Positions 5,545 to 31,518 of a DNA stretch of 32,000 nucleotides are shown one piece after another (within the stretch, counting starts at the first letter, position 1; each line of letters opens with the position of its first letter). The position numbers and the translations under genes were made by a program. The notes under the pieces were generated by a model. That model was not told where the DNA came from. It made no database searches and saw only the letters and a program-made list of their open reading frames with translations. Location: the NCBI RefSeq assembly GCF_000010625.1, contig NC_010296.1, positions 3,810,001 through 3,842,000 of the forward strand, given 5' to 3'. The stretch is from Microcystis aeruginosa NIES-843 (GTDB lineage: Bacteria; Cyanobacteriota; Cyanobacteriia; Cyanobacteriales; Microcystaceae).

Positions 5545-5553
5545 CCGATATTT

Positions 5554-6580: not shown

Positions 6581-7705
6581 ATGGCTAATCGATTAAGAGT
6601 GATCATGCTCGGACCTGATCCCCACGAACAGGGCGGCATGGGGTCAGTGGCTTCTTTGATTTTAAATACACCTATACCCAATATTAAAATTCAATATTTG
6701 TCCACTTGGAAAGCTTATTCGGGCAAGGCAAAAATCGGCAATTTGTTGCATTTAATTGCCACCTTTAACCAAGCATTTCTGTCTTTTTTGCGCCTGTTAT
6801 TGCAGGGAAAAGTTGACGTAGTGCATCTTCACCTCTCGGAAAGGGGCAGTGCTTTAAGAGTCAGTATTATGATGGTCTTTGCCCTGATTTTTCGTAAACC
6901 GATTATTATCCATGCCCACGGTTGTGAATTTCATGAATTCCACGATAACTTAGCTGCACCTCTGAAAAAAAGCTTGGATTGGCTGCTACAACAATGCACC
7001 TATCTGATTGCCCTATCCCAAAGCTGGCAGAATTATTATATTTATCATTGTGGCCTAAAAAGTTCTCAGGTTTTGCTCCTAAATAATCCCGTACAGCTGC
7101 CCGCCCAAATTCCCGAACGTCAAAACAGACAGCAATTAAATTTAGTTTTTTTAGGTAGAATAATTCAACGCAAGGGAGTATACGACCTCCTGCACGCTCT
7201 CGCCAGACTAAGCCAAGAATCCCTAGGCAAAATCCATTTAATTTTAGCGGGTAGCGGTGAAGTTGACCAAGCTCAAGCTCTCGCCCAAGATTTAGGCATA
7301 GAACCATATATTAGTTTCCCTGGTTGGATTAACCCCCAAGAACGCGAGCAGCTCCTTGCCCAAGCAGATATTTTTCTGTTACCTTCCTACAATGAGGGGC
7401 TACCCATGGCCCTTTTAGAAGCCATGAGTTGGGGACTAGCGGTAATTACTACACCCGTGGGCGGCAGTGGCGAAGTTGTAATTCACCAACAGACAGGTTT
7501 ATTGGTTAATCCTGGCGATAGGCAAGGATTGGCAGATCAGTTGGAATTATTGGTCAATAATGAATCACTACGCCTAAAATTAGGGAAAAATGCCCGAGAG
7601 TTCGTTACTCCTTTGGATATCAATAACTACAATAGGTCTCTTGCCAACCTATACCAATTAGCCCTTAGAGCAGCCAAATCTTTGGCTGTAGAACCAAGTT
7701 TTTAG
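6581..7705 (+). CDS. GT4-family (group 1) glycosyltransferase
   Basis: 374 aa with the C-terminal EGLPMALLEAMSWGLAVITTPVGG E-x7-E motif region. Confidence 0.88.
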   Translation: MANRLRVIMLGPDPHEQGGMGSVASLILNTPIPNIKIQYLSTWKAYSGKAKIGNLLHLIATFNQAFLSFLRLLLQGKVDVVHLHLSERGSALRVSIMMVFALIFRKPIIIHAHGCEFHEFHDNLAAPLKKSLDWLLQQCTYLIALSQSWQNYYIYHCGLKSSQVLLLNNPVQLPAQIPERQNRQQLNLVFLGRIIQRKGVYDLLHALARLSQESLGKIHLILAGSGEVDQAQALAQDLGIEPYISFPGWINPQEREQLLAQADIFLLPSYNEGLPMALLEAMSWGLAVITTPVGGSGEVVIHQQTGLLVNPGDRQGLADQLELLVNNESLRLKLGKNAREFVTPLDINNYNRSLANLYQLALRAAKSLAVEPSF

Positions 7706-7716
7706 TACCTAAATTT

Positions 7717-9834: not shown

Positions 9835-9906
9835 CTATCTTGATTAAATACTATATACATAAAAAGTATTTTAGTTATATTAAAATCTCTGAATTTACCC
9901 TAAAAA

Positions 9907-10833
9907 ATGAACGCATATCCCCTAGTATCTATTATCATCCCTGCCTATAACACTGAATCCTATATTGCCAAAGCTATTCAATCTGCCCAAGAGCAAACCT
10001 TAACCAATATAGAAATCATTGTTATTGATGATTGTTCCACCGATAACACTCTTGCCATTGCCCAAAGTTTTAATGATCCCCGTATTATAATTATCCATAA
10101 TTCAGAAAATCTTGGAGTAGCATCTACCAGAAACAAGGCAATTAAATTGGCAAAAGGTAGCTGGTTAGCTCTCTTAGATTCCGATGATTGGTATGAACCA
10201 AACCGCCTGGAAACTCTCTTGGAAGTTGCCCAAAAAACTCAGGCAGATCTAGTTAGCGATGATGTGTATCTCATTTATGATCAAGCACCGTCGCCCTGGA
10301 CAACAGTAATTAAAATGAGTGGGCAAACCCTTGCTCACCCCCTGGTATTAGAGCCAATTTCTTTTATTACAAAACAAAAGTTTGAAAGTAAAAGCCTCTT
10401 TGTCACGATGACTAAACCAATTATCAATCGTCAATTCTTACTAGCGCATAATCTTGAATACGATCCCACTCTCAGACAAGGACAAGATTATTGGTTTTAT
10501 TTAGACTGTTTGTTAAAGGAGGCTAAGTTTATTTTTTATCCCTATCCCTACTATTATCAAAGAACTAGACCAGGCTCCCTGACTCAGCAAAAAACCTCCC
10601 TAAGACTAGAATCTTACTGTCGAGCTAACCAAAAGTTTTTAGAAAAAATAGAAGTAAAAAATAGTCGAGAATTAACCAGAGCTTTAGTTAAGAATTTGCG
10701 TCATCTTCAGAGGTTTAAAAATTATTATAAAGTTGTTGAACCCCTGAAAGAGGGAAAATTTTTGGAGGCCCTACAAGCCCTCAATATCGATTTCTTGCTC
10801 CTGTTCTTGCAACGCATTCCCACACTTTTATAA
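9907..10833 (+). CDS. GT2-family glycosyltransferase
   Basis: VSIIIPAYNTESYI...IIVIDDCSTDNT...LLDSDDW is the typical GT-A/GT2 N-domain. Confidence 0.9.
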   Translation: MNAYPLVSIIIPAYNTESYIAKAIQSAQEQTLTNIEIIVIDDCSTDNTLAIAQSFNDPRIIIIHNSENLGVASTRNKAIKLAKGSWLALLDSDDWYEPNRLETLLEVAQKTQADLVSDDVYLIYDQAPSPWTTVIKMSGQTLAHPLVLEPISFITKQKFESKSLFVTMTKPIINRQFLLAHNLEYDPTLRQGQDYWFYLDCLLKEAKFIFYPYPYYYQRTRPGSLTQQKTSLRLESYCRANQKFLEKIEVKNSRELTRALVKNLRHLQRFKNYYKVVEPLKEGKFLEALQALNIDFLLLFLQRIPTLL

Positions 10834-10872
10834 AACCATCTATCCCAAAAACCCGCTTAGGAAAAAACTATT

Positions 10873-12255
10873 ATGAGCTTAAGAGCAAAAGTGATGCGTG
10901 GGGGAGCTTATCTAGCAGGACGGCAAGGTCTAGGTATGGTCTTAAGTATTATCAGTGTCTTCTTAGTTACCCGTCTAATCGGTCCAGAAAATTATGGATT
11001 ATTTGTATCGGCATTTGGAGTTTTTTCCTATCTGCAACGGATTTTTCAGCTAGGAATTAATTTTTATCTAATTCGAGAGATTAATCCAGAAGAAGAACCG
11101 CATAATTATCATCAGGGATTTACCCTCATGCTTCTACTAGGTATTCTTGGTTTAATACTAGGAATTATTACCATTCCTTTGCTGGCACAATGGATTAAGA
11201 TAGGCAATTTTTCAGCCCTTGCCATATCCCTATTTTTTAGTTTACCTTTTGTCCTCTGTTTTCAAATTCCCTTAGCTAAATTAGAAAGAGAATTAAACTA
11301 TAAAAAAGTTGCCATGATTGAATTGCTCAATCAATGCCTCTACGTTTTAGTAAGCGTTTATTTCGCCTTCCAGGGAGCGGGAGCATGGGCATTAGTAGCG
11401 GCTTGGTGGGCGCAAACTCTCCAGTCAGTGGTGCTGTTTTTCTGGTGTTCCGGTTATCGTCCTCGATTATTCTGGAATCTCGCTTTAGTCAAAGATATGT
11501 TAGGCTACGGCATAACTTTGTCCGCAGCCCAGTGGATTTTCTTTTTGCGAGACCTAGTTAATCCCCTGCTGGTGGGACGTTTTGGCGGAGCAGAAGCCGT
11601 CGGTTTTGTTGCCTTAGCCATTCGTTTAGTTGAAGTTCTCAGTTTTGTTAAACACGCAACTTGGCGTATTTCCATGGCCGCCTTAGCCAAAATTCAAGAT
11701 AACCCGCCCAAGCTACGCTGGGCAATTACCGAGGGTATGAGCCTACAAGTCCTCGCTCTCGGCCCGATTTTGGATGTAGTCGCATGGACTTTACCTTTGA
11801 TTATCGGTTTGGCTTTTGGGGAACGCTGGCGCGTCGCCCTACAGGTATATCCCTTTATTGCCTGGGCTTATTTGACTAATTCCCTCTTTAATCTCCATTC
11901 TTCCACACTCTACGTTCTCAGAAAAAATACCTATGTGGCTTTATTTCACCTTCTCCACGTCGCCCTTTTTGCAGGAGGAGCTTGGTTACTGTTGCCAAAA
12001 TTAGGTATTGTTGGCTATGGATGGGCAGAAGTTATCGCCCTTCCCGCTTATGGTCTGATTCACCTTTTTATTACTAAAATCATTGGCAGCCCCGATTATC
12101 GTTTAGCCCTCCTCTGGTGGGCGGCCTGTTCTCTTCCCTTATTTGTTCAACAATTGGGTATGTGGACGGGTTTCGGTCTAATTTTTGTGATCCTACTGCC
12201 GATAACACGCCAACAAATTCGCAGTTATTGGCATAGTTTTCAACATTCTTCCTGA
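10873..12255 (+). CDS. wzx: Oligosaccharide flippase (MOP superfamily, Wzx-like)
   Basis: 460 aa and multi-TM throughout. The N-terminus GGAYLAGRQGLGMVLSIISVFLVTRLIGPENYGLF is typical of Polysacc_synt proteins. Confidence 0.8.
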   Translation: MSLRAKVMRGGAYLAGRQGLGMVLSIISVFLVTRLIGPENYGLFVSAFGVFSYLQRIFQLGINFYLIREINPEEEPHNYHQGFTLMLLLGILGLILGIITIPLLAQWIKIGNFSALAISLFFSLPFVLCFQIPLAKLERELNYKKVAMIELLNQCLYVLVSVYFAFQGAGAWALVAAWWAQTLQSVVLFFWCSGYRPRLFWNLALVKDMLGYGITLSAAQWIFFLRDLVNPLLVGRFGGAEAVGFVALAIRLVEVLSFVKHATWRISMAALAKIQDNPPKLRWAITEGMSLQVLALGPILDVVAWTLPLIIGLAFGERWRVALQVYPFIAWAYLTNSLFNLHSSTLYVLRKNTYVALFHLLHVALFAGGAWLLLPKLGIVGYGWAEVIALPAYGLIHLFITKIIGSPDYRLALLWWAACSLPLFVQQLGMWTGFGLIFVILLPITRQQIRSYWHSFQHSS

Positions 12256-12272
12256 TTTTTCCTGAACAGCCC

Positions 12273-13217
12273 ATGATTAACCCCAATCAGTCGCCCCTAG
12301 TCAGCATTTTAATCAATAACTATAACTATGCTGGTTTTTTACCGGCAGCGATTTCTAGTTCCCTAGAACAAACCTATCCCCATCTGGAGATAATTGTGGT
12401 AGATGACGGTTCCCAGGATCGTTCTCGTCAGGTGATAGAAGAATACGGTCAGCAAATTATCCCCATATTCAAAGTTAATGGTGGTCAAGCTTCCGCTTTT
12501 AATCAGGGTTTTGCTGCTAGTAGCGGAGAAATTATCTGTTTTTTGGATGCAGACGATTTATTTAGTCTTAATAAAGTTGAAAAGGTCGTAGAGATTTTTC
12601 AGGACTATCCCGATATTGGTTGGTGTTTTCACTCCTTGCAGATGTTTACAGATAAAACTGCTGCCCCAGACCATGCTACCCCAAAATCAGTCAATTCAGG
12701 AGTTTATGATTTAAGAAATTGCTTGTCCCAGGGAAAACTGCGAGGAAAAATGCCCTTTGAGGGTACAGCCACCTCTGGCATCTGTTTTCGCCGCTCTTTT
12801 TTAGAGCAGTTATTACCCATGCCCGAAGAAATTAGAATTACTAGCGATGATTACTTAAAATACGCCGCTTTTGCCCTAACTCCGGGCTATATTCTCCTAG
12901 AAAAACTTGCCCAACAAAGAATCCATGCTAACAACGCTTATACTTTACGAAAAAACCAAAAATCTTTACGGGGTAAAATTAATATCTTAACTGCCTTTTG
13001 GCTTAAAAGTAATTTTCCGCAAATGTCGAAATTTACTAACAATATTTTTACTCTCGGCTATAGCTTCTATAATCGAGAAGATAATGGCGACCCGCACCTA
13101 AAACTTCTCATTCACAAGTATTTCTGTTCTCTTACCATAGGAGAAAAAATAGAAGTCCAGATCAGAAGAATTTATTATTGTTTGAAATCAAAGATTAATC
13201 CTCTTTTTCAACCATGA
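12273..13217 (+). CDS. GT2-family glycosyltransferase
   Basis: VSILINNYNYAGFL...IIVVDDGSQDRS...FLDADD motifs. Confidence 0.9.
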   Translation: MINPNQSPLVSILINNYNYAGFLPAAISSSLEQTYPHLEIIVVDDGSQDRSRQVIEEYGQQIIPIFKVNGGQASAFNQGFAASSGEIICFLDADDLFSLNKVEKVVEIFQDYPDIGWCFHSLQMFTDKTAAPDHATPKSVNSGVYDLRNCLSQGKLRGKMPFEGTATSGICFRRSFLEQLLPMPEEIRITSDDYLKYAAFALTPGYILLEKLAQQRIHANNAYTLRKNQKSLRGKINILTAFWLKSNFPQMSKFTNNIFTLGYSFYNREDNGDPHLKLLIHKYFCSLTIGEKIEVQIRRIYYCLKSKINPLFQP

Positions 13218-14500
13218 TCAGAATCCCCCCACTACTGGAAAAGTTTATAACTATTTTTAGTCTAATTTTTTACACACGACTATTTTCTTTTGAAAGCTTA
13301 TTTGTCCATTCCGAGGGGGAATTAGCCGTCAGTTCTCCTGACTATACTCCCTTAGATCCACTTCTCTCTTTAATGCAGCATGGAATCGCTTTTGTGGTTT
13401 TGGTGCTAATGGCTCTCCGTTGGCAACATACCATCGGATTTTTTGGCCGTAATCCCTTTCTTTGGTTACTAATTATTCTGGTACTAATTTCCGCTAACTG
13501 GTCGAATTTTCCTGAGATTACCCAAAGACGTTCCTTCGCTTTTTTAGAAACTTGTCTATTTGCCTTATATTTTGCCTCGCGCTACGCAATTAAAGAACAA
13601 CTAAGACTAACAGCTTATGCTTTAGGCATCACTGCTATTATTAGTTTTTTCTTCAGCCTTGCCTTCCCCTCTAGTGCTTTAGAATCGGGAGTCCATGCTG
13701 GCTCATGGAGGGGTCCTTTTCTCCATAAAAATCTCTTTGCTCGTTTAATGACCTTAATTTGTCTAGTTAACCTACTGGTCACACCAGTTAATCGGAGAGA
13801 AGGCTATCTATTTTTAGCCTTTTGCTGTCTCTCTTTTGGAATGATTGGACTTAGCACTTCTAAAAGCGCTCTTTTTATCGGTATAATCCTATTCATACTA
13901 ATGCAAATTTACCAAACTATTTCTTGGCAAGATTATATCAGAATTCCCCTCTGGTTAACTGGGCTTTTACTGGCAGGTTCTTTATTTCTTTGGATCGGGA
14001 TGAATTTAGAAGATATTATTACTGCTTCTGGTCGAGATTTAACCCTATCAGGAAGAACTATTATTTGGTCTGCTGTTCTTGATAAAATCCAAGAAAGACC
14101 TTGGCTAGGTTATGGATATGTAGGGTTTTGGTATGGATTAAAAGGACCTTCTTCCTATGTACAGAAAGCCTACGGTACTACCTATATACCTCCCCACTCT
14201 CATAATGGCTTCCTCGAACTAGCTATTGCTTTCGGATTAGTGGGAACTATCCTATTTATTATGAGTTTTTTATTAGTTATAAGACGCACAATTATCTCTG
14301 CTATTTATCAATCCCATCACGAGGGTTTATGGCCGTTGATGTACTTATCATTTCTGATACTATATAATCAAACTGAGTCCACTTTACTCGAACATAACTC
14401 CATTTTTTGGTTGTTGTATATGTCCCTAGCTCTATCTCCTTTTTTACCTCAGCATAATGCTCAATTAAACTATGAACAAAATAGCGTTTTTTCTCAGTGA
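13214..14500 (+). CDS. O-antigen ligase/polymerase family membrane protein (Wzy-like)
   Basis: 428 aa and polytopic, with the PPHSHNGFLELAIAFGLVG motif of the Wzy_C/O-antigen ligase family. Its start overlaps the upstream stop (ATGA). Confidence 0.8.
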   Translation: MIRIPPLLEKFITIFSLIFYTRLFSFESLFVHSEGELAVSSPDYTPLDPLLSLMQHGIAFVVLVLMALRWQHTIGFFGRNPFLWLLIILVLISANWSNFPEITQRRSFAFLETCLFALYFASRYAIKEQLRLTAYALGITAIISFFFSLAFPSSALESGVHAGSWRGPFLHKNLFARLMTLICLVNLLVTPVNRREGYLFLAFCCLSFGMIGLSTSKSALFIGIILFILMQIYQTISWQDYIRIPLWLTGLLLAGSLFLWIGMNLEDIITASGRDLTLSGRTIIWSAVLDKIQERPWLGYGYVGFWYGLKGPSSYVQKAYGTTYIPPHSHNGFLELAIAFGLVGTILFIMSFLLVIRRTIISAIYQSHHEGLWPLMYLSFLILYNQTESTLLEHNSIFWLLYMSLALSPFLPQHNAQLNYEQNSVFSQ

Positions 14501-15569
14501 TTTAGATGGCGGTGGGGCCGAACGAGTTATACTTAACTTGGCTAATGGTTTTGCCCAACAGGGAGAATTTGTTGATCTAGTTTTAGCTCGAAAAGAAGGT
14601 TTATACTTAGGACAGATTGACCCCGGGGTGAATACTATAGATTTAAAAGCCAAAAGTCTGTTTAGGAGTATCCCCTCCCTAGTCAAATATCTACAAAATC
14701 AACGTCCACAAGCCATGATATCAGCCCTAGAAGATACCAATATTGTTGCTCTTATGGCTAAAATCCTAGCAAGGAAAAAAATATCTGTCTTTGTGACAGT
14801 ACATAATAACTTATCTCAAGAAATACGCCATGCTCAACAGTGGAAGCGCAAAATAGTTCCCTATTTTTTGCGATGGATTTATCCCTTTGCTTACCGAGTG
14901 GTTTGTGTTTCCCAAGGAGTGGCTCAAGATTTAGTTAAATTTGGCATCCAACCACGACAAATCCGAGTAATTTATAATCCGATTGTTACCCCAGAATTAA
15001 TCGTCAAACTGCAAGAAAACCTAGAACATCCTTGGTTTTTACTTGGTCAGCCGCCAGTAATTTTAGGAGTGGGAAGACTCAATCATCAAAAAGATTTTCC
15101 TACCCTAATTCGGGCTTTTGCTTTAGTTCGACGAGTGCAACCCGCTAGATTATTAATACTAGGAGAAGGAGAGACCCGCAGCGAACTTATATCGTTGATT
15201 AAAGAACTAAATTTAGATACAGACGTACAATTAGAGGGATTTGTCGAAAATCCTTTTGCTTATATGAAAAAGGCACAGGTTTTAGTATTATCCTCCGCTT
15301 GGGAGGGTTTTGGTAATGTTTTGGTAGAGGCAATGGCTGCTGGCATTGCAGTGGTATCGACGGATTGCCCTAGCGGACCAGAGGAAATTTTAGATAAAGG
15401 AAAATACGGTTCCCTAGTGGCGATCGCTGATTCAGCAGCTATGGCAGCGGCAATTCTTAATACCTTGAAAAATAACGTCGATCCGAGTTGGCTAAAAAAT
15501 AGAGCCGAGGAGTTTTCTTTAGAAAAAATCCTGGATCAATACCGTTTACTAATAGAGAAAAAACTTTAG
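14472..15569 (+). CDS. GT4-family glycosyltransferase
   Basis: LDGGGAERV N-terminus and EGFGNVLVEAMAAGIAVVSTDCPSGPEEIL. It overlaps the upstream gene by 29 nt. Confidence 0.88.
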   Translation: MNKIAFFLSDLDGGGAERVILNLANGFAQQGEFVDLVLARKEGLYLGQIDPGVNTIDLKAKSLFRSIPSLVKYLQNQRPQAMISALEDTNIVALMAKILARKKISVFVTVHNNLSQEIRHAQQWKRKIVPYFLRWIYPFAYRVVCVSQGVAQDLVKFGIQPRQIRVIYNPIVTPELIVKLQENLEHPWFLLGQPPVILGVGRLNHQKDFPTLIRAFALVRRVQPARLLILGEGETRSELISLIKELNLDTDVQLEGFVENPFAYMKKAQVLVLSSAWEGFGNVLVEAMAAGIAVVSTDCPSGPEEILDKGKYGSLVAIADSAAMAAAILNTLKNNVDPSWLKNRAEEFSLEKILDQYRLLIEKKL

Positions 15570-15588
15570 TGGATTTTTATCTAAAATT

Positions 15589-16230
15589 ATGAAAAAATTG
15601 CAGTCTTTTCAACTGATTTTAGCAGCGATTCAAGCAGATCTTGATCGCTATGTTGTTACCGACAATTTGTCTTGGCTAGAAGTGGTTTTAACCAAAAGAG
15701 GTTTTTGGGCGACCTTGCAATATCGTGTCAGTCGTTGGATTCATTTTCATTTCCATTTTCCTATTCTCCGGAGTCTCCTAAAAGCTATTTGCCTCATTTG
15801 GCGTTTAATCCTTGAAATGATTACTGGCATAGAATTACCTAACCGGGCTGAAATTGGTCAGGGTTTGTTTATACCCCACGCTCACGGCATTATTGTTCAC
15901 TGCGATGTTCAAATTGGCGAATACTGTAATTTAAGCCAAGAAGTGACTATTGGTGTGGCTGGCCGGGGAGAAAAAGCGGGAGTGCCTAAAATTGGGGATC
16001 GTGTATATATTGCCCCTGGTGCGAAAATTTTTGGATCGATTATTATTGGTGATAATGTAGCCATCGGTGCTAATGCAGTAGTTACAAAAGATTTACCCGA
16101 TCAGGCGGTGGCGGTGGGTATCCCCGCTAAAGTTATTAGTTATCAAGGTTCAGAAGATTTTATTCTCTATCGAGAAACCCCAAAAAATTCTCAGAAAGTT
16201 TTCCCAACCTCTTTTCAAGATCGACCCTAG
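15589..16230 (+). CDS. Hexapeptide-repeat O-acetyltransferase (serine acetyltransferase-like, polysaccharide-modifying)
   Basis: Left-handed beta-helix repeats IGDRVYIAPGAKIFGSIIIGDNVAIGANAVV, with a CysE/WcaB-like N-terminal helical region. Confidence 0.85.
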   Translation: MKKLQSFQLILAAIQADLDRYVVTDNLSWLEVVLTKRGFWATLQYRVSRWIHFHFHFPILRSLLKAICLIWRLILEMITGIELPNRAEIGQGLFIPHAHGIIVHCDVQIGEYCNLSQEVTIGVAGRGEKAGVPKIGDRVYIAPGAKIFGSIIIGDNVAIGANAVVTKDLPDQAVAVGIPAKVISYQGSEDFILYRETPKNSQKVFPTSFQDRP

Positions 16231-22521: not shown

Positions 22522-22645
22522 AGCTGTTAAGCATTTAAATTGCTTGTTGAGACGAGGCAAGAGGCAAGAGGCAAGAGGCAACAGTAAAGGGATTGGGGGA
22601 GATTCGGCTAATCTTAAGAATAAGTGCTTTAAATGCGTCTTAGCT
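22522..22645. mobile_element. 124-bp MITE derived from the IS630-family element at 27496-28726
   Basis: The left end AGCTGTTAAGCATTTAAATT matches the IS left end AGCTTTTACGCATTTAAGTT at 17/20. The right end (rc AGCTAAGACGCATTTAAAGCAC) matches the IS right end (rc AGCTAAAACGCACTTAAACCAC) at 19/22. TA lies on both flanks (22520-21, 22646-47). Confidence 0.7.
22554..22581. repeat. Heptamer tandem repeat (GAGGCAA)x4 inside the MITE
   Basis: Read directly. Confidence 0.85.
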
Positions 22646-22960: not shown

Positions 22961-24131
22961 CTTCTTTCCCGAAGGATTTTTCGCACCTGCCTTAACAGAT
23001 TTACTCTGTTCTGGTCTTATGGTCGCTCTACAGACTGACACCGCAAGCCCTGCGGCCAAAATGTTTTTACTGGCGTTAATATCTCGGTCATGGTGTGTTC
23101 CACAGATTGGACAGTCCCATTCTCGAATATTTAACGGCATTTTCTCAGCAATATGCCCGCAATTACTACACCTTTTAGAGCTAGGAAACCATCTATCTAT
23201 TTCGATGTAATTTCTCCCATACCAACGGCATTTATAGGCTAATTGTCGAGTGATTTCTCCCCAGCTAACGTCAGATATTGCCTGAGATAATTTCGGGTTT
23301 TTTGACCATATTCTTGACGGCTAAATTCTCAACCACAATCGTTTGGTTTTCACGAACTAATTGAGTGGTTAGCTTATGTAAATGGTCTTTTCTGCTATCG
23401 GTGATTTGAGCGTGAATCTTGGCTACTTTGATTCTCGCTTTTTCCCGATTCTTTGAGTCTTTCTTCTTCTTAGAAAGATTTTTTTGGGCCTTTCGCAGTC
23501 TCCGATAATGCTTTTTAAAATACTTGGGATTAGACACTTTATCGCCATCGCTAGTAATCACGAGGCTACTAATTCCTAAGTCAATTCCGATGGCTTTATC
23601 TGTTACTGGTAGAGGCTTAATCGTTGGGTCATCAAATCTAATTGAAATATGCCAACGTCCAGAAGGATGTAATCTGACTGTTACTGTACTTGGGTCACAG
23701 CTTTCTGGTATTTGTCTTGACCATCGAATAGGTAAAGGTTCTGTGCATTTGGCTAAATAGATTTGTTTGTCTTTAAATTTAAAGGCTGATTTGGTAAATT
23801 CGGCACTTCCTCCCTGATGTTTTTTCTTAAAGTTAGGATACTTAGTACGACCAGCAAAGAAATTAGTGAAAGCTGTTTGTAAATGTCTTAACCCTTGTTG
23901 TAAGGGTACACAGCTTACTTCATTGAGAAAGTTTAATTCTTCTTGCTTTTTCCAATCAGTTAGCATTGAAGAAGTTTGAGCGTAGCCTACTCTTTCTTGC
24001 TTTTCGTACCAAGCTTGTGTTCGTTCGTGGAGAGCTTTGTTGTAAACTAATCTTACACAGCCCAATGTGCGCCGCAATAGCGACTCTTGTTCGGGTGTTG
24101 GGTAAAATCGAAACGAATAGGCTTTTTCCAT
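22943..24131 (-). pseudogene. tnpB: tnpB (RNA-guided endonuclease TnpB / OrfB) split by a +1 frameshift in an A6 run
   Basis: ORF 24131..23271 carries IGIDLGISSLV (RuvC-I D) and VVENLAVKNM (RuvC-II E). The frame through 23280..22943 carries SDVSWGE...CSNCG...CPICG...HDRDINASKNIL (zinc finger and RuvC-III). The two frames join if one A is removed at 23298-23303. Confidence 0.85.
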
Positions 24132-24221
24132 GTCTCACATTTTAGCATATATTTCGTAAATGTGCTAATATTTAACAGTAAAGCCGTCGTAGAACGACGG
24201 GGTTTCAGACCCAAATTTTCG

Positions 24222-25439
24222 ATGATTCATCAACCCCCGGCGGGGACAAGGGATTTATTACCCCTAGAAGTTACCCAAAAAGGCTGGATTAACGATCGCC
24301 TTCAGTCTGTCTTTCAGCGTTGGGGCTATCAAAGGATCGTCACCTCCACCATTGAATGGCTCGATACCCTCACCGCAGGCGGTGCGATCGATCCCAGCAC
24401 CGTGATCCAACTCCACGGGGATAGTCAAGGACTATCGGGATTACGCCCCGAATTAACCGCTTCCATTGCCCGCAGTGCCGTCACCCGCATGAGTGGGGAG
24501 TCCTATCCCCAACGTCTCTGTTATCGGGCCAACGTTTTTCGTCGCCCTAGCGCCGGTTATCACGGTCGTCAAGTGGAATTCTATCAAGCGGGGGTAGAAC
24601 TGCTCTTTTCTGGCGGTTTACTAGCTGATGCCGAGATTTTACTGCTCCTGGCCGACTGTTTCGATAGTTTGGCCGTCCCTAACTGGCAGATTATTTTAGG
24701 AGAAGCGGGTTTGACTCGTTCGCTACTTTCTCCCTTTCCGGCTCCCTTACGCGAACAGGTGAAACGCTGTTTAGCCCTCCTCGACTACGTTAGCCTCGAA
24801 AATCTTCCCTATCCCAACGAAACCCTCCGGCAGCAAGCCCGACAATTATTTCACCTGCGCGGTAATCCTGAGGATGTCCTCGCACAAGTGGCCCTATTAG
24901 CCCAGGAAGAATCAGCCCAAAAAGCCGTTAATAACCTTAAATCCCTAGTAGAGCTGCTTAATGCCGATCGCTCTGGGCCTTTCCCCCTAATTCTCGATTT
25001 AAGTCTGATTCAAACCTTTGATTACTACACCGGCATCGTTTTTAAGGCGGTTAGTGATCACCAGCAAAATCTCAGTATTTTAGGCCAGGGCGGACGCTAT
25101 GATCAATTATTGGGCGTTTTTCATCCCCAGGGCCAATCGGCTCCGGGTATCGGTTTTTCCCTGAATATCGAAGAACTGCACGAAAGTTTATTATCGGGGC
25201 AGACTTTACCCACTCAAGCTGCCCCCCTCGACTGGTTACTTATCCCTTTGGGTAATAACGCCCAGATAGCGACTTTTAGTAAGGCTCGCTCCCTTCGCAA
25301 CGGTGATCCTAATCTGAGGGTGGCGATCGATTTAGGGGGTCGCAGCGAGGCACAAATTCGTACCTATGCCCGCGATCGAATGATTAAAAATCTCGCCTGG
25401 GTGCAGGAAGATGGTTCCGTGAGCGAAGAATCTCTCTAA
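24222..25439 (+). CDS. hisZ: ATP phosphoribosyltransferase regulatory subunit HisZ (HisRS paralogue)
   Basis: MIHQPPAGTRDLLP start, EFYQAGVELL, GQGGRYDQLL and PGIGFSLNIEEL (the GFS..L pattern is HisZ-like rather than HisS-like). The track start at 24087 lies inside the IS end and is rejected. Confidence 0.8.
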   Translation: MIHQPPAGTRDLLPLEVTQKGWINDRLQSVFQRWGYQRIVTSTIEWLDTLTAGGAIDPSTVIQLHGDSQGLSGLRPELTASIARSAVTRMSGESYPQRLCYRANVFRRPSAGYHGRQVEFYQAGVELLFSGGLLADAEILLLLADCFDSLAVPNWQIILGEAGLTRSLLSPFPAPLREQVKRCLALLDYVSLENLPYPNETLRQQARQLFHLRGNPEDVLAQVALLAQEESAQKAVNNLKSLVELLNADRSGPFPLILDLSLIQTFDYYTGIVFKAVSDHQQNLSILGQGGRYDQLLGVFHPQGQSAPGIGFSLNIEELHESLLSGQTLPTQAAPLDWLLIPLGNNAQIATFSKARSLRNGDPNLRVAIDLGGRSEAQIRTYARDRMIKNLAWVQEDGSVSEESL

Positions 25440-25481: not shown

Positions 25482-25517
25482 TATAGGACTCTATCTAGGG
25501 TTTGCGGCAAAAAGTAC

Positions 25518-25583
25518 GGGCGAAGCATTCGGGCAATAACCTATCGGTGAAACCGTAGATTTTTTATCCGAATGCTTCGCCCC
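25518..25583. repeat. Long inverted repeat GGGCGAAGCATTCGG ... CCGAATGCTTCGCCC (15-bp perfect arms, ~35-nt spacer)
   Basis: The arms are exact reverse complements, read directly. MITE- or REP-like. Confidence 0.7.
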
Positions 25584-25829
25584 TACAGGACGGGGGCCGA
25601 TGAAAACGCAAGGTTTTGAAGCACGATTCCCTCAAAATCTTGCACCTGTTTCGCGAGAATAGACCTCGTTTCCAAACATAAACCAGAAGAGCCGTTCAAA
25701 AAACTTTATAAATAATATTGATTGGTTTGTTTATAATAACCCCCATTAATACCCACTGAAACCATAATAAATCATAAGCAAAAATCAATGTTAATAATCG
25801 ATTCTAATCTATACCAGAGATGAACGTGG

Positions 25830-25854
25830 GTTGGGTTAAAGCATGAAACCCAAC
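25830..25854. repeat. Hairpin GTTGGGTT-9 nt-AACCCAAC
   Basis: 8-bp perfect stem. This type of GGTTGGGTT...AACCCAAC hairpin is a common cyanobacterial dispersed repeat in my recollection. Confidence 0.4.
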
Positions 25855-26184: not shown

Positions 26185-27255
26185 ATGAAACAACCAACCG
26201 CCAATTATGATGAACCCTGGAAAGAAGCATTAACCGAATATTTTGAAGCGTTTTTACATTTCTTCTTTCCTGAAGTTCACCAACTAATTGATTGGACAAA
26301 AATTCCCGAATCCCTAGAAAAAGAACTCAAACGGATTACCGCTTCAGCAAAGACAAAAAAACGTTTCGCTGACAAACTCTATAAAGTCTGGTTACTCAGG
26401 GGTGAAGAAGTCTGGATTTTGATTCATATTGAAATTCAAAGTCAATACGAAGAAAATTTCCCTCAGAGGATGTATATTTATAACTATCGGGCCTTTGATT
26501 TGTATCAGAAACCAGTTATCAGTCTCGCTATATTAGGGGATGAACGAGTAAATTGGCGACCAGATTCCTATAATTATACTATCGCTGGTTGTGAAGTCAG
26601 CCTCAAATTCCCAACGGTTAAATTACTGGACTATGAGGAAAGCTGGTCAGAACTAGAAACAAGTAGCAATCCTTTTGCGATAATAGTGATGGCACACCTA
26701 AAAACGAAAGCGACTACTGGGAAGCTGCCACAACGGGAACAGTGGAAGTGGAAGTTAATCAGGGGATTATATGAAAAGGAGTTCGAGAGAGAACAGATAA
26801 TTAAACTGTTTGAAATCATCGACAATATGATGACTTTATCCCCTGAATTACAGTCAAGCTTAGAGAGTAAAATCAAACAATTTGAAGAGGAAAGAACCAT
26901 GCCTTTAATGAGTAATATGGAGTTACGAGGAATAGAACGCGGTAAAGAAATAGGCAAGGAAATTGGTAAGGAAATTGGGGAGTTACGAGGGATAGAACGC
27001 GGTAAAGAAATAGGCAAGGAAATTGGTAAGGAAATTGGTAAGGAAATTGGTAAGGAAATTGGTAAGGAAATTGGAGCGTTAGAAAATGCTCGTAACTATG
27101 TTAAAACGGTGCTGAAAACGCGATTGGGTGATATTCCAATAGAAATTGAGCAAGCTGTGGATAAAATTTCTGTATTATCGATTTTAGACGAGTTACTGAA
27201 ATCGGCATTAACCGTTAATTCTTTTGATGAGTTGCATCAACTTTTAGAACAATAG
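26185..27255 (+). CDS. Rpn-family PD-(D/E)XK recombination-promoting nuclease / putative transposase with DUF4351-like tail (copy 1, 356 aa)
   Basis: ANYDEPWKEAL...FADKLYKVWLL...WILIHIEIQSQYE core typical of YhgA/Rpn-like proteins abundant in cyanobacteria, followed by a (GKEI)9 hinge and a C-terminal helical tail. Confidence 0.75.
   Translation: MKQPTANYDEPWKEALTEYFEAFLHFFFPEVHQLIDWTKIPESLEKELKRITASAKTKKRFADKLYKVWLLRGEEVWILIHIEIQSQYEENFPQRMYIYNYRAFDLYQKPVISLAILGDERVNWRPDSYNYTIAGCEVSLKFPTVKLLDYEESWSELETSSNPFAIIVMAHLKTKATTGKLPQREQWKWKLIRGLYEKEFEREQIIKLFEIIDNMMTLSPELQSSLESKIKQFEEERTMPLMSNMELRGIERGKEIGKEIGKEIGELRGIERGKEIGKEIGKEIGKEIGKEIGKEIGALENARNYVKTVLKTRLGDIPIEIEQAVDKISVLSILDELLKSALTVNSFDELHQLLEQ
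26920..27072 (+). repeat. In-frame coding microsatellite: 12-nt unit GGTAAGGAAATT (GKEI), 3 + 6 units, embedded in a 60-nt duplication
   Basis: The units occupy 26941-26976 and 27001-27072. The segment 26920-26979 is repeated at 26980-27039. Confidence 0.95.
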
Positions 27256-27276
27256 TCTCAGGAATTTTCTTCTCCA

Positions 27277-27474
27277 ATGAACCCAACAACTGCCAATTAT
27301 GATGAACCCTGGAAAGAAGCATTAAGCGAGTATTTTGAAGCGTTTTTATGCTTCTTCTTTCCTGAAGTTCACCAACTAATTGATTGGACAAAAATTCCCG
27401 AATCCCTGGAAAAAGAACTCAAACGGATTACCGCTTCAGCTAAGACAAAAAAACGTTTCGCTGACAAACTCTAT
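27277..27474 (+). pseudogene. Rpn-family copy 2, N-terminal 66 codons only
   Basis: Nearly identical to 29322-29519. Homology stops after ...FADKLY, where a TCAGTTA heptamer tract and the IS630 element begin. Confidence 0.85.
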
Positions 27475-27495
27475 TCAGTTATCAGTTACCAGTTA
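27475..27495. repeat. Heptamer tract (TCAGTTA)x3; continues as TCAGTTA TCAGTGA at 28729-28742 on the other side of the IS
   Basis: Read directly. The reconstructed pre-insertion site has 5 heptamers. Confidence 0.8.
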
Positions 27496-28726
27496 AGCTT
27501 TTACGCATTTAAGTTACATTGACAGCATTACCCTTATTTTTAAGTTTTCTACTCCATTTAATAATCAATCCCCCTTCATTTAAAAGCTGATTGACTACTT
27601 TTTCCAGTTCTTCTTTATTTTCAAATTCTCGATTAGCTATGTATTCTTTAGCGGAATGCCACACTAATTCTATTAGGTTGTAATCTGGACTATAAGCTGG
27701 TAAAAACTCTAGCCTAATATTGGGCAACTCTTTTTCCACCTGCTCAATAACATCTTTCTTTTTGTGATAACTAGCATTGTCTAATATAATGATAATCTTC
27801 GGCCCCTTTTCTCGAAAATCTTCGGGCAGATTTCCCAAGTTTATCCATTCTTGACGAATCTCTTCATGAAGTTTCTTTAATTGTTCATGGAAAGTTTCTG
27901 AATTTCCTTTTTTGATCATAAAACAGACTCTTTTTTTATCATTATATCTTAAGGCTCCCATCACATTCACCCTTCCTCTTTTTCTTTGCCCATTCACTTT
28001 TTTTCGCTTTCCTTTTTTTGTCCAAGCTCTCCTTCTTATTACTCTCAAACTAAATCCACACTCATGAGGGGCTGTGTGGCGAACCTGCGTCGCCACCTTG
28101 AAAGCCCCGTCCCAAAACCATACCTGGATTGACTCTGGCTTTTCTTTCGCTAACTTTAAATATTCATCTAATTTTTCTTTAAATGCTTTTCTTAATTTCT
28201 TGTCTTGCTTATCTTCTAGACTATATTTTGCCCAGATATACACATACTTTTTTCTTCTCAATATTCTTCTCACTTGCGAGCCACTCAGTTTAATTCCTGT
28301 TTCCTTTTCTAGATGCTCTGCTAATCTTGCCGCTGTCCATCTCCCGAATTCATATCCCAATTCCTTCGGGTCTTCATCAACTATTTTCAATAGTAAATTA
28401 ATATATTCCTCTGTGGCTTTTTTATGATTTCCATTTTTTCTACCATCTTCTAGACTTTCTATATTGTTAGGATCGCCATGAACACACCAAGGGGCGACTG
28501 TTTTGAGTGAACAGCCAATAAACTCAGCTATTTCTCGTTGAGTTTTTCCGTCGTTTAGCAAGAGAAACATTAAAATTCTTTCCCTAACCTCTGCTCTTTC
28601 TTCTTCTTTAAGAGCTTTTTGTAAGTTTTTCTTTTCTTCTAAGTCTAGGAAATCTTTGGCTGGCATAAGTAGGATTTTTCTCAAGTTACTATTTCTATTT
28701 TAGGTGGTTTAAGTGCGTTTTAGCTT
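27496..28726 (-). mobile_element. IS630-family insertion sequence (1231 bp) with TA target duplication
   Basis: Imperfect terminal inverted repeats AGCTTTTACGCATTTAAG / rc AGCTAAAACGCACTTAAA, flanking TA at 27494-95 and 28727-28, and a single transposase ORF. Confidence 0.85.
27509..28684 (-). CDS. IS630-family DDE transposase (with a 15-aa insert at the first catalytic D)
   Basis: N-terminal HTH (GKTQREIAEFIGCSLKTV), WFWD...ECGFSL, IIILDNASYH and PAYSPDYNLIELVW (the DD(35)E pattern of IS630/Tc1). Confidence 0.88.
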   Translation of the reverse strand: MRKILLMPAKDFLDLEEKKNLQKALKEEERAEVRERILMFLLLNDGKTQREIAEFIGCSLKTVAPWCVHGDPNNIESLEDGRKNGNHKKATEEYINLLLKIVDEDPKELGYEFGRWTAARLAEHLEKETGIKLSGSQVRRILRRKKYVYIWAKYSLEDKQDKKLRKAFKEKLDEYLKLAKEKPESIQVWFWDGAFKVATQVRHTAPHECGFSLRVIRRRAWTKKGKRKKVNGQRKRGRVNVMGALRYNDKKRVCFMIKKGNSETFHEQLKKLHEEIRQEWINLGNLPEDFREKGPKIIIILDNASYHKKKDVIEQVEKELPNIRLEFLPAYSPDYNLIELVWHSAKEYIANREFENKEELEKVVNQLLNEGGLIIKWSRKLKNKGNAVNVT

Positions 28727-28745
28727 ATCAGTTATCAGTGACTAA

Positions 28746-29300
28746 TTGGAAGCAAGTAGTAATCCTTTTGCGATAATAGTGATGGCACACCTGAAAACAA
28801 AAGCGACTACTGGGAAGCTGCCACAACGGGAACAGTGGAAGTGGAAGTTAATCAGGGGATTATATGAAAAGGAGTTCGAGAGAGAACAGATAATTAAACT
28901 GTTTGAAATCATCGACAATATGATGACTTTATCCCCTAAATTACAGTCAAGCTTAGAGAGTAAAATCAAACAATTTGAGGAGGAAAGAACCATGCCTTTA
29001 ATGAGTAATATGGAGTTACGAGGGATAGAACGCGGTAAGGAAATTGGTAAGGAAATTGGGGAGTTACGAGGAATAGAACGCGGTAAAGAAATAGGCAAGG
29101 AAATTGGTAAGGAAATTGGAGCGTTAGAAAATGCTCGTAACTATGTTAAAACGGTGCTGAAAACGCGATTGGGTGATATTCCAATAGAAATTGAGCAAGC
29201 TGTGGATAAAATTTCTGTATTATCGATTTTAGACGAGTTACTGAAATCGGCATTAACCGTTAATTCTTTTGATGAGTTGCATCAACTTTTAGAACAATAG
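28746..29300 (+). pseudogene. Rpn-family copy 2, C-terminal ~184 codons (could still be translated as a stand-alone C-module)
   Basis: From SSNPFAIIVMAHLK onward it matches copy 1, including the tail ...SFDELHQLLEQ. The (GKEI) count is 2 + 3. The track ORF begins at a TTG. Confidence 0.8.
29034..29117 (+). repeat. Coding microsatellite (GKEI) 2 + 3 units
   Basis: Units at 29034-29057 and 29082-29117, separated by the ELRGIER-coding 24 nt. Confidence 0.95.
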
Positions 29301-29321
29301 TCTCAGGAATTTTCTTCTCCA

Positions 29322-30284
29322 ATGAACCCAACAACTGCCAATTATGATGAACCCTGGAAAGAAGCATTAAGCGAGTATTTTGAAGCGTTTTTATGCTTCT
29401 TCTTTCCTGAAGTTCACCAACTAATTGATTGGACAAAAATTCCCGAATCCCTGGAAAAAGAACTCAAACGGATTACCGCTTCAGCTAAGACAAAAAAACG
29501 TTTCGCTGACAAACTTTATAAAGTCTGGTTACTCAGGGGTGAAGAAGTGTGGATTTTGATTCATATTGAAATTCAAAGTCAATACGAAGAAAATTTCCCT
29601 CAGAGGATGTATATTTATAACTATCGGGCCTTTGATTTGTATCAGAAACCAGTTATCAGTCTCGCTATATTAGGGGATGAACGAGTAAATTGGCGACCAG
29701 ATTCCTATAATTATACTATCGCTGGCTGTGAAGTGAGGTTGAAATTCCCAACGGTTAAATTACTGGACTATGAGGAAAACTGGTCAGAACTAGAAACAAG
29801 TAGCAATCCTTTTGCTATAATAGTCATGGCACACCTGAAAACAAAAGCGACTACTGGGAAGCTGCCAGAACGGGAACAGTGGAAGTGGAAGTTAATCAGG
29901 GGATTATATGAAAAGGAGTTCGAGAGGGAACAGATAATTAAACTGTTTGAAATCATCGACAATATGATGACTTTATCCCCTGAATTGCAGTCAAGTTTAG
30001 AAAGTAAAATCAAACAATTTGAGGAGGAAAGAACCATGCCTTTAATGAGTAATATGGAGTTACGAGGAATCGAACGCGGTAAGGAAATTGGAGCGTTAGA
30101 AAATGCTCGTGATTTTGTGAAAAAAGTTTTGGAAAACCGACTAGGTGATATCCCTGGAGATATTGGACAATGTCTCAATGATGCTTCAGTTATTTCGGTT
30201 TTAGAAGAGATGTTAAAAGCCGCACTTATAGTAAATTCTTTTGAGGAGTGTAGGAAGTCTTTTAGTATCATCATAAATAAGTAG
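29322..30284 (+). CDS. Rpn-family PD-(D/E)XK nuclease / putative transposase (copy 3, 320 aa)
   Basis: The N-domain is nearly identical to copy 1. It has a single GKEI unit (30078-30089) and a divergent tail ...DFVKKVLENRLGDIPGDIGQCLNDASVISVLEEMLKAALIVNSFEECRKSF. Confidence 0.75.
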   Translation: MNPTTANYDEPWKEALSEYFEAFLCFFFPEVHQLIDWTKIPESLEKELKRITASAKTKKRFADKLYKVWLLRGEEVWILIHIEIQSQYEENFPQRMYIYNYRAFDLYQKPVISLAILGDERVNWRPDSYNYTIAGCEVRLKFPTVKLLDYEENWSELETSSNPFAIIVMAHLKTKATTGKLPEREQWKWKLIRGLYEKEFEREQIIKLFEIIDNMMTLSPELQSSLESKIKQFEEERTMPLMSNMELRGIERGKEIGALENARDFVKKVLENRLGDIPGDIGQCLNDASVISVLEEMLKAALIVNSFEECRKSFSIIINK

Positions 30285-30310
30285 GGTGGGTAATACCTAC
30301 CTTACTTAGT

Positions 30311-30688
30311 AAACTGTTTGAAATCATCGACAATATGATGACTTTATCCACTGAATTGCAGTCAAGTTTAGAAAGTAGAATCAAACAATTTGAGGAGGAA
30401 AGAACCATGCCTTTAATGAGTAATATGGAGTTACGAGGAATAGAACGCGGTAAGGAAATTGGTAAGGAAATTGGTAAAGAAATAGGCAAGGAAATTGGGG
30501 CGTTACAAAAAAGCCGCGATGCCATAAAAACAGTTTTAACTGTGCGGTTTGGAGCGATTTCTTCAGAAATTGAAGAGATAATCGGCAAAATGACTAACCC
30601 TACTATCTTAGAAGAGCTACTAAAATTAGCAGCTACCGCTAATTCTCTCGCAGAATTTAAGCAGTCTTTGGCAAAAATCAATATCTAG
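30311..30688 (+). pseudogene. Rpn-family copy 4: 3' module only (homology starts at KLFEIIDNMMTLS); ORF 30335-30688 intact
   Basis: Begins abruptly after a short hairpin (30278-30304). It carries (GKEI)4 and a third tail variant ...ALQKSRDAIKTVLTVRFGAISSEIEEIIGKMTNPTILEELLKLAATANSLAEFKQSLAKINI. Confidence 0.75.
30449..30496 (+). repeat. Coding microsatellite (GKEI)x4
   Basis: Four 12-nt units read directly. Confidence 0.95.
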
Positions 30689-30702
30689 AAAACGGGTTTC
30701 TT

Positions 30703-30735
30703 AGAAAACGGGTTTCTTTGAGAAACCCGTTTTCT
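30703..30735 (+). terminator. Strong intrinsic terminator closing the Rpn array
   Basis: AGAAAACGGGTTTCT-ttg-AGAAACCCGTTTTCT: perfect 15-bp stem followed by GTAAATTTTTG. The left arm is also tandemly duplicated at 30688-30702. Confidence 0.8.
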
Positions 30736-30816
30736 GTAAATTTTTGTTATATCCCCCTTGAAAAATTCGGGATTCTTTGCACAAAATAGTCGCATTAATC
30801 TTTTGCGGTCAGTGTC

Positions 30817-31158
30817 ATGACTTCTACCCTGTTGCCGAGCTTTCCTGCTGTTGACGATGTTTTGTTCAATTTCGCTCAATCTGATGGCTTGAGTCAAGCT
30901 AATCAGGTGAATAGTGTGAGAAATCAGCGTTTAACCGCACCCGAATTAAATACCGTAGTTTTCCTCGATGCTGGTGTTAGCGATTATCAAAGTCTCCAAG
31001 CTGGGGTAATTCCAGAAGTCGCCACCGTTATTCTCTCTCCCAATCAAGACGGAATCGAACAAATATCCGCTTTTTTACCACTGTTGAAACCTCAGATTTG
31101 TCGGATTTGCAGACATCTGGGGTTTTTCAGCCAGATATACCCTTCTTTGCCGGCTTAA
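30817..31158 (+). pseudogene. N-terminal fragment of a DUF4347-type giant exoprotein gene
   Basis: LNTVVFLDAGVSDYQSLQAGVIPEVATVILSPNQDGIEQISAFL matches the DUF4347 pattern (vvFID..V.dyq.L..gv......v.L....dG..QI...L). The similarity ends near 31077, and the ORF then runs into a MITE at 31158. Confidence 0.6.
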
Positions 31159-31244
31159 GTACCTAAGCAAAATTAATTACACAAATCTAACCCCCCCTTG
31201 CCCCTTGCCTATCTCCACTAGGAAATTTATTTTGCACCACTACT
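31158..31244. mobile_element. 87-bp MITE of the AGTACCTAAGCAAAAT family with TA duplication
   Basis: Termini AGTACCTAAGCAAAAT ... ATTTTGCACCACTACT, with TA at 31156-57 and 31245-46. Confidence 0.75.
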
Positions 31245-31282
31245 TAATTGTTTAATTTTCACCCTTTATTCAGGAAAAAATC

Positions 31283-31399
31283 ATGTCAATTCCTTTTTTA
31301 GTTAAAGATATCTTCCCCGGTTTATCTGGCTCCTTCCCCAGCTATCTAACGACGCTGGGCAATACCCTGTACTTCCAGGCCCGGGACGGCGTGAACTAA
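31283..31399 (+). pseudogene. Second N-terminal fragment of an ELWxxDGT-repeat-type exoprotein gene (38 codons)
   Basis: MSIPFLVKDIFPGLSGSFPSYLTTLGNTLYFQARDGVN-stop. The stop falls just before where the first ELWxxDGT motif would be expected. Confidence 0.55.
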
Positions 31400-31475
31400 A
31401 CTATATATATATAGCACCGCCAAGTCGGCTAGGACAAGTGGGGGGCGGCAAATTCCCGCAATGCTTAAGCTTTTT

Positions 31476-31518
31476 CCCCTGTTGCCTGTTCCCCGTTCCC
31501 CGTTCCCCGTTGCCTGCT
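31476..31518. repeat. Degenerate heptamer array centred on (CCCCGTT)x3
   Basis: CCCCTGTT GCCTGTT CCCCGTT CCCCGTT CCCCGTT GCCTGCT read directly. Confidence 0.8.

Follow-up and report, generated by a model that had tools for sequence, protein, structure and literature searches.

The stretch analysed here, called the window in the following, comprises 32,000 nucleotides (nt) of Microcystis aeruginosa NIES-843 (contig NC_010296.1, positions 3,810,001 to 3,842,000), and positions are counted from its first nucleotide. Between 26185 and 30688 it carries an array of genes that we call Rpn-like, in which an N-terminal domain with a nuclease-type motif is joined to a C-terminal tail by a hinge of four-residue repeats, (GKEI)n. 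An earlier sequence-only reading, made without database searches, had described four same-strand, head-to-tail copies, and open reading frame (ORF) listing and translation reproduced all four at the same coordinates. They are numbered copies 1 to 4; copy 2 consists of two parts, c2N and c2C, and tails are sorted into types A to D. The features of the array are as follows.

26185..27255, plus strand: copy 1, full-length Rpn-like gene, 356 amino acids, tail type A
26827 (ATGATG, M215/M216) and 26899 (M239, with GAGGA 5′ of it), plus strand: candidate internal starts of copy 1
26929..27072, plus strand: hinge of copy 1, GIER-(GKEI)3-GELRGIER-(GKEI)6, 12 four-residue units with a nested 60-nt duplication
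27277..27474, plus strand: c2N, the first 66 codons of the core-deleted copy 2
27475..27495, plus strand: left part of the (TCAGTTA)n heptamer tract found in place of codons 67-158, with a TA target site at its end
27496..28725, minus strand: insertion sequence (IS) of the IS630 family, 1230 bp, with its transposase ORF at 27509-28684 on the minus strand
28726..28745, plus strand: right part of the heptamer tract and conserved junction CAGTGACTAATTGG, with a TAA stop in the downstream reading frame
28746..29300, plus strand: c2C, 3′ portion of the core-deleted copy, starting at residue ~157 and ending in a type A tail
29022-29117, plus strand: hinge of c2C, 2+3 GKEI units with a 48-nt duplication; candidate starts at 28920 and 28992
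29322..30284, plus strand: copy 3, full-length Rpn-like gene, 320 amino acids, tail type B
30066-30089, plus strand: hinge of copy 3, one GKEI unit; candidate internal starts at 29964 and 30036
30285..30310, plus strand: junction GGTGGGTAATACCTACCTTACTTAGT between the B-tail gene copy 3 and the tail-only module copy 4
30311..30688, plus strand: copy 4, tail-only module, tail type C, with homology from K207 onwards and an ORF at 30335-30688 (117 amino acids)
30437-30496, plus strand: hinge of copy 4, four GKEI units; alternative start at 30407
30702..30736, plus strand: terminator-like hairpin with a 16-bp stem formed by a 16-nt repeat, followed by a T-rich stretch, which closes the array

Since the strong terminator-like hairpin comes only after copy 4, this module is part of the apparent transcription unit of the array. 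A promoter scan delivered 14 sites compared to 13.6 in shuffled sequence, i.e. no excess, and is therefore uninformative on internal promoters. Rfam at gathering thresholds gave no match anywhere in the window. Long minus-strand ORFs over the hinges (e.g. 26631-27017) were rejected as genes, being merely the reverse complement of the repeat.

Codon-wise parsing of the hinges yielded 3+6 GKEI units in copy 1, 2+3 in c2C, one in copy 3 and four in copy 4, encoded by GGTAAGGAAATT and two synonymous variants. Tandem Repeats Finder detected the 12-nt arrays together with the nested duplications of copy 1 and c2C, and both analyses confirm the unit counts and the 60-nt duplication noted before. Upstream of the repeat, pairwise counts in DNA alignments show 95-98% nucleotide identity between the copies. 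Here, copies 1 and 3 agree at 726 of 756 nt and 244 of 252 amino acids, as expected from the near-identity of their N-terminal parts in the sequence-only reading, and c2N encodes the same 66 residues as the N-terminus of copy 3 with one mismatch in 198 nt. In the first 171 nt downstream of the repeat, identity is only 55-67%. The drop is located exactly at the repeat, so that divergence along the genes is not uniform but follows a sharp step. The previous statement that the tails diverge immediately after the repeat thus holds for the tail types but not for every copy: the tail of c2C is 100% identical to that of copy 1, and the window therefore contains three tail types and not four.

Copy 2 had been regarded as a broken paralogue. 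It is interrupted, but not simply split by a mobile element, because its halves do not abut and codons 67-158, encoding the nuclease core, are missing and replaced by the heptamer tract. For comparison, we used 77 loci from a scan of species-representative genomes (numbered L001 and so on) and 79 metagenome contigs from a DNA-pattern scan. The IS-free junction ...GACAAACTCTAT-(TCAGTTA)n-TCAGTGACTAATTGGAAGCAAGTAG... occurs in other Microcystis genomes, e.g. in L003, L007, L008, L042 and L049, and over the genome and metagenome loci together the core-deleted junction was counted 33 times, its tract comprising 2-7 heptamers. L020 and L042 show another left junction, located after codon ~35. The tract is located at 5380-5480 in L003, 10060-10160 in L007, 7050-7150 in L020 and 6680-6780 in L042, and a fixed TAA stands just 5′ of the downstream frame in the core-deleted form.

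The mobile element within copy 2 shows the features of an IS630 member: a DDE_3 transposase (PF13358, 8e-38; NF033545, 296 bits in the hidden Markov model (HMM) search), terminal inverted repeats, which are imperfect (17/30 positions), and a duplicated TA target at 27494-27495 and 28726-27 that flanks the element and lies within the heptamer tract. This element is absent from all 77 comparison loci. Its in silico excision together with one TA results in exactly the junction of L007. From these sequences, copy 2 is a widespread, presumably nuclease-dead core-deleted form, and IS630 is a later, simple insertion into its heptamer tract, because the same junction occurs elsewhere without the IS and excision restores the L007 arrangement. 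An IS-mediated duplication or deletion that joined parts of copies 1 and 3 was considered as well and is ruled out by the same IS-free junction in other genomes.

Proteins with a comparable layout are known from Escherichia coli. RpnL is a toxic endonuclease, and RpnS, produced from an internal start, is its specific antitoxin (Zhong et al. 2023, PNAS, PMC10400941; commentary in PMC10400984). Both share a long helix with four-residue repeats composed of one hydrophobic and three charged or glycine residues, KGIE in the case of RpnC. The number of these 12-nt/four-residue repeats varies widely among strains, and a match is needed for the inhibition of RpnL by RpnS (PMC10400941). The same study reports that the repeats start 8-20 residues past the RpnS methionine, that rpn arrays come from tandem direct duplication, that stand-alone RpnS genes are located downstream of some rpn genes (ypaA; DUF4351), and that such a gene can be lost via fusion with the N-domain (PMC10400941). 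Since the repeat hinge, the spare C-terminal modules and the array are published Rpn traits, the claim that an Rpn array with a coding repeat was undescribed had to be given up. Within the collection of papers searched, none deals with Rpn arrays of Microcystis or other cyanobacteria. The locus is a divergent cyanobacterial instance of the published system and not a new kind; what is new about it is the organisation: the reassortment of four tail types, the storage of non-cognate modules and the heptamer microsatellite of the core-deleted form.

The correspondence to E. coli RpnA-E and RpnP2 covers the N-terminal domain of PD-(D/E)XK type and its D...E-x-Q-S motif, the long helix with four-residue repeats (KGIE in RpnC, GKEI here) and, putatively, the small helical C-domain behind it. 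In both cases the repeat number is strain-variable, tandem arrays are formed by direct duplication and stand-alone tail genes are found downstream (ypaA/RpnE_Ss, RpnC_Ss); fusion of an N-domain with a downstream module has been reported for E. coli. There are also clear differences. Similarity is restricted to the first ~100 residues and remains below curated HMM thresholds, and the Microcystis proteins contain ~25 extra residues between the MMTL motif and the hinge. Downstream modules in Microcystis mostly have another tail type than the upstream gene, whereas those of E. coli cluster with their upstream partner. Four old tail types on a homogenised N-domain and the core-deleted heptamer form are particular to Microcystis.

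For the identification of the array proteins as Rpn/YhgA-like (COG5464) by the sequence-only reading, direct HMM evidence is weak. The HMM comparison with Rpn, PD-(D/E)XK and DUF4351 models, which had been suggested as a check, gave weak matches, all under the cut-offs. PF04754 (Transposase_31, YhgA-like) reached 17.4 bits with a cut-off of 21, and TIGR01784 (Rpn family) 19.4 bits with a cut-off of 52.1, both being the sole nuclease-family matches of the window proteins. The whole window proteins had no DUF4351 match; among the four tail types, type A aligned with the whole PF14261 model and gave the best value of 19.9 bits (E=8e-4; cut-off 25), type C was weak (E=0.12) and types B and D had no PF14261 match. 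PADLOC left the window proteins unmatched, but it contains no models for this family. A profile search of the family against PDB sequences returned merely a spurious match of 42 residues (E=0.22). The charged repeat helix also attracted matches to FliH (NCBIfam) and Yae1_N (Pfam), which were discarded as compositional.

Structure prediction with AlphaFold2 resulted in models with a predicted local distance difference test score (pLDDT) of 84 for copy 3 and 79 for the copy 4 module. In the copy 3 model, an alpha-beta core carries D63 and E83 on the adjacent strands 62-70 and 75-83 and is followed by a helical region; in the copy 4 model, the repeat is placed inside a single long helix (30-72), with three short helices behind it. 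Foldseek detected nothing significant for the full-length model against the PDB (best E ~0.1), although the weak list consists mostly of PD-(D/E)XK nucleases, and for the copy 4 module nothing below E=1.8; RpnA_S (7TH0) was not recovered. Without significant matches the structure search is neutral on the Rpn assignment. Taken together, the sub-threshold and missing matches weigh against an Rpn identity, and they would fit proteins that are not Rpn-like in function, i.e. another PD-(D/E)XK enzyme or a non-catalytic protein sharing only the repeat helix and the tail. The extra segment of ~25 residues, absent from E. coli Rpn, would fit such proteins as well.

However, a significant chain of full-length homology runs through a sister subfamily of cyanobacterial proteins with (QGIE)n repeats, which match DUF4351 with ~1e-20 and PF04754 with 21.0-21.7 bits over nearly the whole model. 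Copy 3 aligns with this subfamily over its entire length (BLASTP E=9e-18; hhalign 99% probability, E=5e-19). Here, the GKEI and QGIE tracts coincide and the tail is placed on DUF4351, which supports the proposal that the tail occupies the DUF4351/RpnS position. Orthologues from Nostocales and Geminocystis with N-domains 53-62% identical carry canonical DUF4351 tails (28-77 bits), and the profile of the Microcystis tails matches that of canonical DUF4351 tails with E=4.5e-5 and 69% probability in hhalign. In the comparison with E. coli RpnA/B/C/E, the alignment is limited to the first ~100 residues, with E=0.03 for the family alone and 8e-4 when the sister subfamily is included. Here, D63 and E83-I-Q85-S86 are placed on D63 and E82-H-Q84-S of RpnA, with a further ...RM downstream. 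D63, E83, Q85 and S86 are invariant in 62 family members, as expected for a PD-(D/E)XK-type motif, and more than 60 residues, the catalytic-type motif included, are invariant across genera. In addition, some proteins with 83-88% identity are labelled Rpn family or RpnC/YadD family by NCBI. With this homology chain, the conserved motif, and a domain order and repeat behaviour as in Rpn, we consider a function unrelated to Rpn very unlikely. We conclude that the proteins represent a divergent branch of the Rpn superfamily, for which "Rpn-like" is the suitable term, and that they are not members by curated thresholds; the earlier identification survives as distant homology.

The (QGIE)n proteins (DUF4351, PF14261; PF04754) share domain order, repeat position and often the locus with the GKEI family but differ from it by an identity of only 24%, by canonical DUF4351 tails above 70 bits and by the QGIE/GIEQ unit. 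Their genes are often found directly upstream of GKEI genes (L008 at 4964-5947, L010, L012-L014, L019, L020, L042 and L076), and their (QGIE)n/(GIEQ)n repeats comprise 3 to more than 10 units, the number varying between genomes. In a large protein search, the GKEI family was limited to cyanobacteria, with 1334 matches, none of which has a precomputed Pfam domain. One comparison locus belongs to the assembly of an actinobacterium, Nocardioides allogilvus (L027, contig055, 686 bp); it is an 89% identical fragment of the Microcystis family and most likely an assembly contamination.

Two candidate internal starts are found in front of the hinge. M239 (ATG at 26899, 30036 and 30407 in copies 1, 3 and 4) is located 14 residues before the first GKEI unit and 10 residues before the GIER that opens the hinge, with a GAGGA upstream at suitable distance. 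In pairwise alignment it coincides with a methionine of the QGIE subfamily (VMQITTSWMRQGIEQ...) that stands 8-14 residues before the repeat, and VMQITTSWMRQGIEQ resembles MMTLAQWFEEKGIEKG of RpnC. The ATGATG encoding M215/M216, which the sequence-only reading had proposed, is situated 38 residues upstream of the repeat and is the first ATG of the stand-alone ORF in copy 4, whose homology to the other copies starts 24 nt before it. All three methionines are invariant in the family. Both sites are candidates, and M239 would be favoured because its spacing fits the published rule of 8-20 residues better than that of ATGATG.

In Microcystis, arrays of this type are the normal case. Every Microcystis genome contains the family in several copies, and many contigs of draft assemblies end inside family genes. 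In more than 150 copies from genomes and metagenomes we found only the four tail types A-D, with 97.7% identity within a type and 62% between types, each type occurring on full-length, core-deleted and tail-only forms. Repeat number varies across genomes, as had been anticipated: within any one tail type, hinge lengths spread between 1 and 12 units (57 genome and ~85 metagenome copies), the 12 units of copy 1 being the longest hinge of all copies sampled. In other genera of the family, the repeat units are GLQQ, GLEQ, GIEQ or RGEQ.

Tails are reassorted with respect to the N-domains, which bears out the expectation of chimeric tails across strains. N-domain pairs with the same tail type are 95.6% identical, those with different types 95.2%; array neighbours reach 99.6% identity in the N-domain while carrying different tails, and the nearest N-domain relative has the same tail type in only 6 of 24 copies. 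Since variants in the 35 residues 5′ of the hinge track the locus and are unlinked to tail type, the breakpoints lie at or next to the repeat. Synonymous divergence amounts to ~1.3 (saturated) between tail types and to ~0.2 in the N-domains. For this reason the contrast between the two parts is read as one of age, with old tail lineages placed on an N-domain that is homogenised by recombination and strongly constrained, and not as hypermutation of the tails. The ratio of nonsynonymous to synonymous substitution (dN/dS) in the N-domain is 0.09, i.e. purifying selection is strong.

This constraint is also relevant for the view that the genes are decaying copies of a selfish or formerly mobile family of putative transposases, with no present function and neutral mosaicism. 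The high copy number in every Microcystis genome, the frequency of truncated and core-deleted copies, the repeated flanks of the arrays and the IS within the array would be in agreement with it. On the other hand, neither the low dN/dS nor the residues that are invariant across genera would be expected from decay. Moreover, nearly all modules have open frames, the genes themselves lack terminal inverted repeats and target duplications, and Zhong et al. argue against Rpn as a transposase (PMC10400941). We regard this view as highly improbable.

The arrangement of the modules led the sequence-only reading to propose a cassette-switching locus, in which silent donor modules would be moved onto an expressed nuclease gene at (GKEI)n with high frequency within a strain. 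All eight full-length B-tail genes are followed by a tail-only module via one conserved junction, GGTGGGTAATACCTACCTTACTTAGT, which precedes every tail-only module in other genomes as well; the module is of type A, B, C or D and usually non-B, a pairing that would suit such switching. Stored modules mostly have a tail type or unit number absent from the full-length genes of the same genome, and in two closed genomes no stand-alone or core-deleted module agrees with any full-length gene present there in type and unit number at once. M. ichthyoblabe FBCC-A1114, for example, harbours the full-length genes A2, A9, A4, A3, B2, B7, B7 and D7 (tail type and unit number) besides the modules C5, C5, C5, D5 and D6. 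These genes and modules are distributed over L002, L004, L006, L008, L009 and L020, and the three independent C modules all have five units. The modules of BLCC-F210 (L003, L010 and L051) are A5, A6 and C8.

Exchange could be supported by 140-290 nt of 95-98% identity upstream of the hinge, the breakpoints lie at the hinge and the module frames are intact. Full-length C and D genes, in turn, are mostly singletons without a downstream module, which is the expected outcome of a deletion fusing an N-domain to the module behind it. The syntenic site beside the hisZ-like gene contains a single D-tail gene in L009 and a different array in L003. However, all modules are in direct orientation, so that a fusion by deletion would be irreversible, and the locus encodes neither a recombinase nor an invertase or reverse transcriptase; its sole transposase is that of the IS630 element missing from the 77 comparison loci. 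The repertoire is small, and all data come from comparisons between genomes, for which slippage and general homologous recombination account equally well. Dedicated cassette switching is therefore not supported and, in our estimation, unlikely. The array is comparable to pilE/pilS of Neisseria in that variant 3′ copies without promoter are arrayed near an expressed gene whose 5′ part is conserved; unlike there, evidence for high-frequency non-reciprocal transfer or a dedicated initiator is lacking, and only four tail types exist. The TAEL repeat of EcoR124I/EcoR124II HsdS, cited by Zhong et al., is another case in which the number of four-residue repeats in a helix alters the specificity of a defence protein. 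There it spaces the DNA-recognition domains of a type I restriction subunit, an unrelated protein without toxin-antitoxin logic.

We rather favour the explanation that the locus is an array of Rpn-like long-toxin/short-antitoxin paralogues, shaped by duplication, slippage and recombination at the hinge, and consider it probable. The full-length products of copies 1 and 3 consist of the N-terminal PD-(D/E)XK-type nuclease domain, a long helix whose length is set by the repeat, and a small helical tail resembling DUF4351. If the proteins behave as E. coli RpnL and RpnS do, the long protein would act as a toxic endonuclease on DNA. An internal start, for which M239 is the likeliest site and M215/M216 a possible one, would yield a short protein with identical helix and tail that binds and inhibits the long form, with tail type and repeat number determining which short form fits which long form. 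According to the comparison of genomes, the copies arose by tandem duplication, and their unit number changes when the 12-nt tract slips. Gene conversion or homologous recombination between paralogues keeps the N-domains ~95-99% identical and at the same time reassorts the four old tail types at the hinge breakpoint. Copy 2 is a presumably nuclease-dead, core-deleted derivative that gained IS630 later, and copy 4 a tail-only module of the kind that always follows B-tail genes. While anatomy, family links, repeat variation, reassortment and purifying selection are shown by the data, we infer nuclease toxicity, internal initiation, antitoxin action and any role in defence from homology.

Two further results speak against this array of toxin/antitoxin paralogues. 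Stand-alone modules seldom match a resident full-length gene in type and unit number; under the published specificity rule, the modules would not be antitoxins for their neighbours. Furthermore, the surroundings are not an evident defence island. Relatives or phage-borne copies were not found in a phage collection and in IMG/VR.

The mismatch between modules and full-length genes leads to a more speculative idea, a combinatorial specificity system in which non-cognate, promoterless modules would be recombined at the hinge onto a constant nuclease domain on ecological time scales. We think it doubtful. If true, the modules might re-key the pairing of toxin and antitoxin, or serve as orphan antitoxins against incoming Rpn toxins, and a toxin-antitoxin defence gene would possess a cassette-based mechanism of diversification. 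Zhong et al. left open how the 12-nt repeats expand and contract and from where stand-alone RpnS and duplicated rpn genes originate (PMC10400941). With dozens of copies per genome, Microcystis offers a dense natural data set for both questions. Four tail types, hinges of 1-12 units and three structural forms, also at the syntenic hisZ site, make rules of recombination and specificity testable. The idea of an antitoxin encoded within the toxin gene might also be carried over to cyanobacteria that form blooms, organisms for which phage defence matters ecologically. For annotation, it is relevant that the family genes are now labelled "hypothetical" or "transposase" and that short-read assemblies break at them.

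Regarding the surroundings of the array, the window also contains an exopolysaccharide cluster (275-16230), housekeeping genes, a TnpB fragment and a hisZ-like gene upstream, and a DUF4347 gene fragment downstream. Segments of the flanks recur at other family loci. Positions 30717-31078, which include the start of a DUF4347-like ORF (30817-31158), recur directly in front of family genes at 10 or more other loci, and 31152-31375 (within the repeated flank 30717-31375) as well as a 95-nt piece at 25745-25839 recur downstream of arrays elsewhere. Array flanks are shared with L001, L002, L003, L006, L007 and others. In relation to L006, positions 31078-31152 resemble an unoccupied site.

Further upstream, an IS605-type OrfB/TnpB ORF (23271-24131, minus strand, 286 amino acids) lacks the C-terminal part of a typical TnpB. 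It meets the called start of the hisZ-like ORF (24087-25439, plus strand), which has a tRNA-synt_His domain and whose true start is probably located further downstream. A long hairpin, GGGCGAAGCATTCGG...CCGAATGCTTCGCCC, occupies 25516-25590 in the intergenic stretch from hisZ to the array and could be a terminator or a small repeat element. Other heptanucleotide repeats of the window are non-coding, namely GGGAGCA at 4368-4392, GAGGCAA x4 at 22554-22581, CCCCTTG at 31194-31209 and TTCCCCG x5 at 31474-31511, and look like the short tandemly repeated sequences of cyanobacteria. The exopolysaccharide cluster looks complete, with a Wza-like SLBB protein, a Wzc-like tyrosine kinase, several glycosyltransferases, a flippase, a Wzy-like polymerase and an acetyltransferase.

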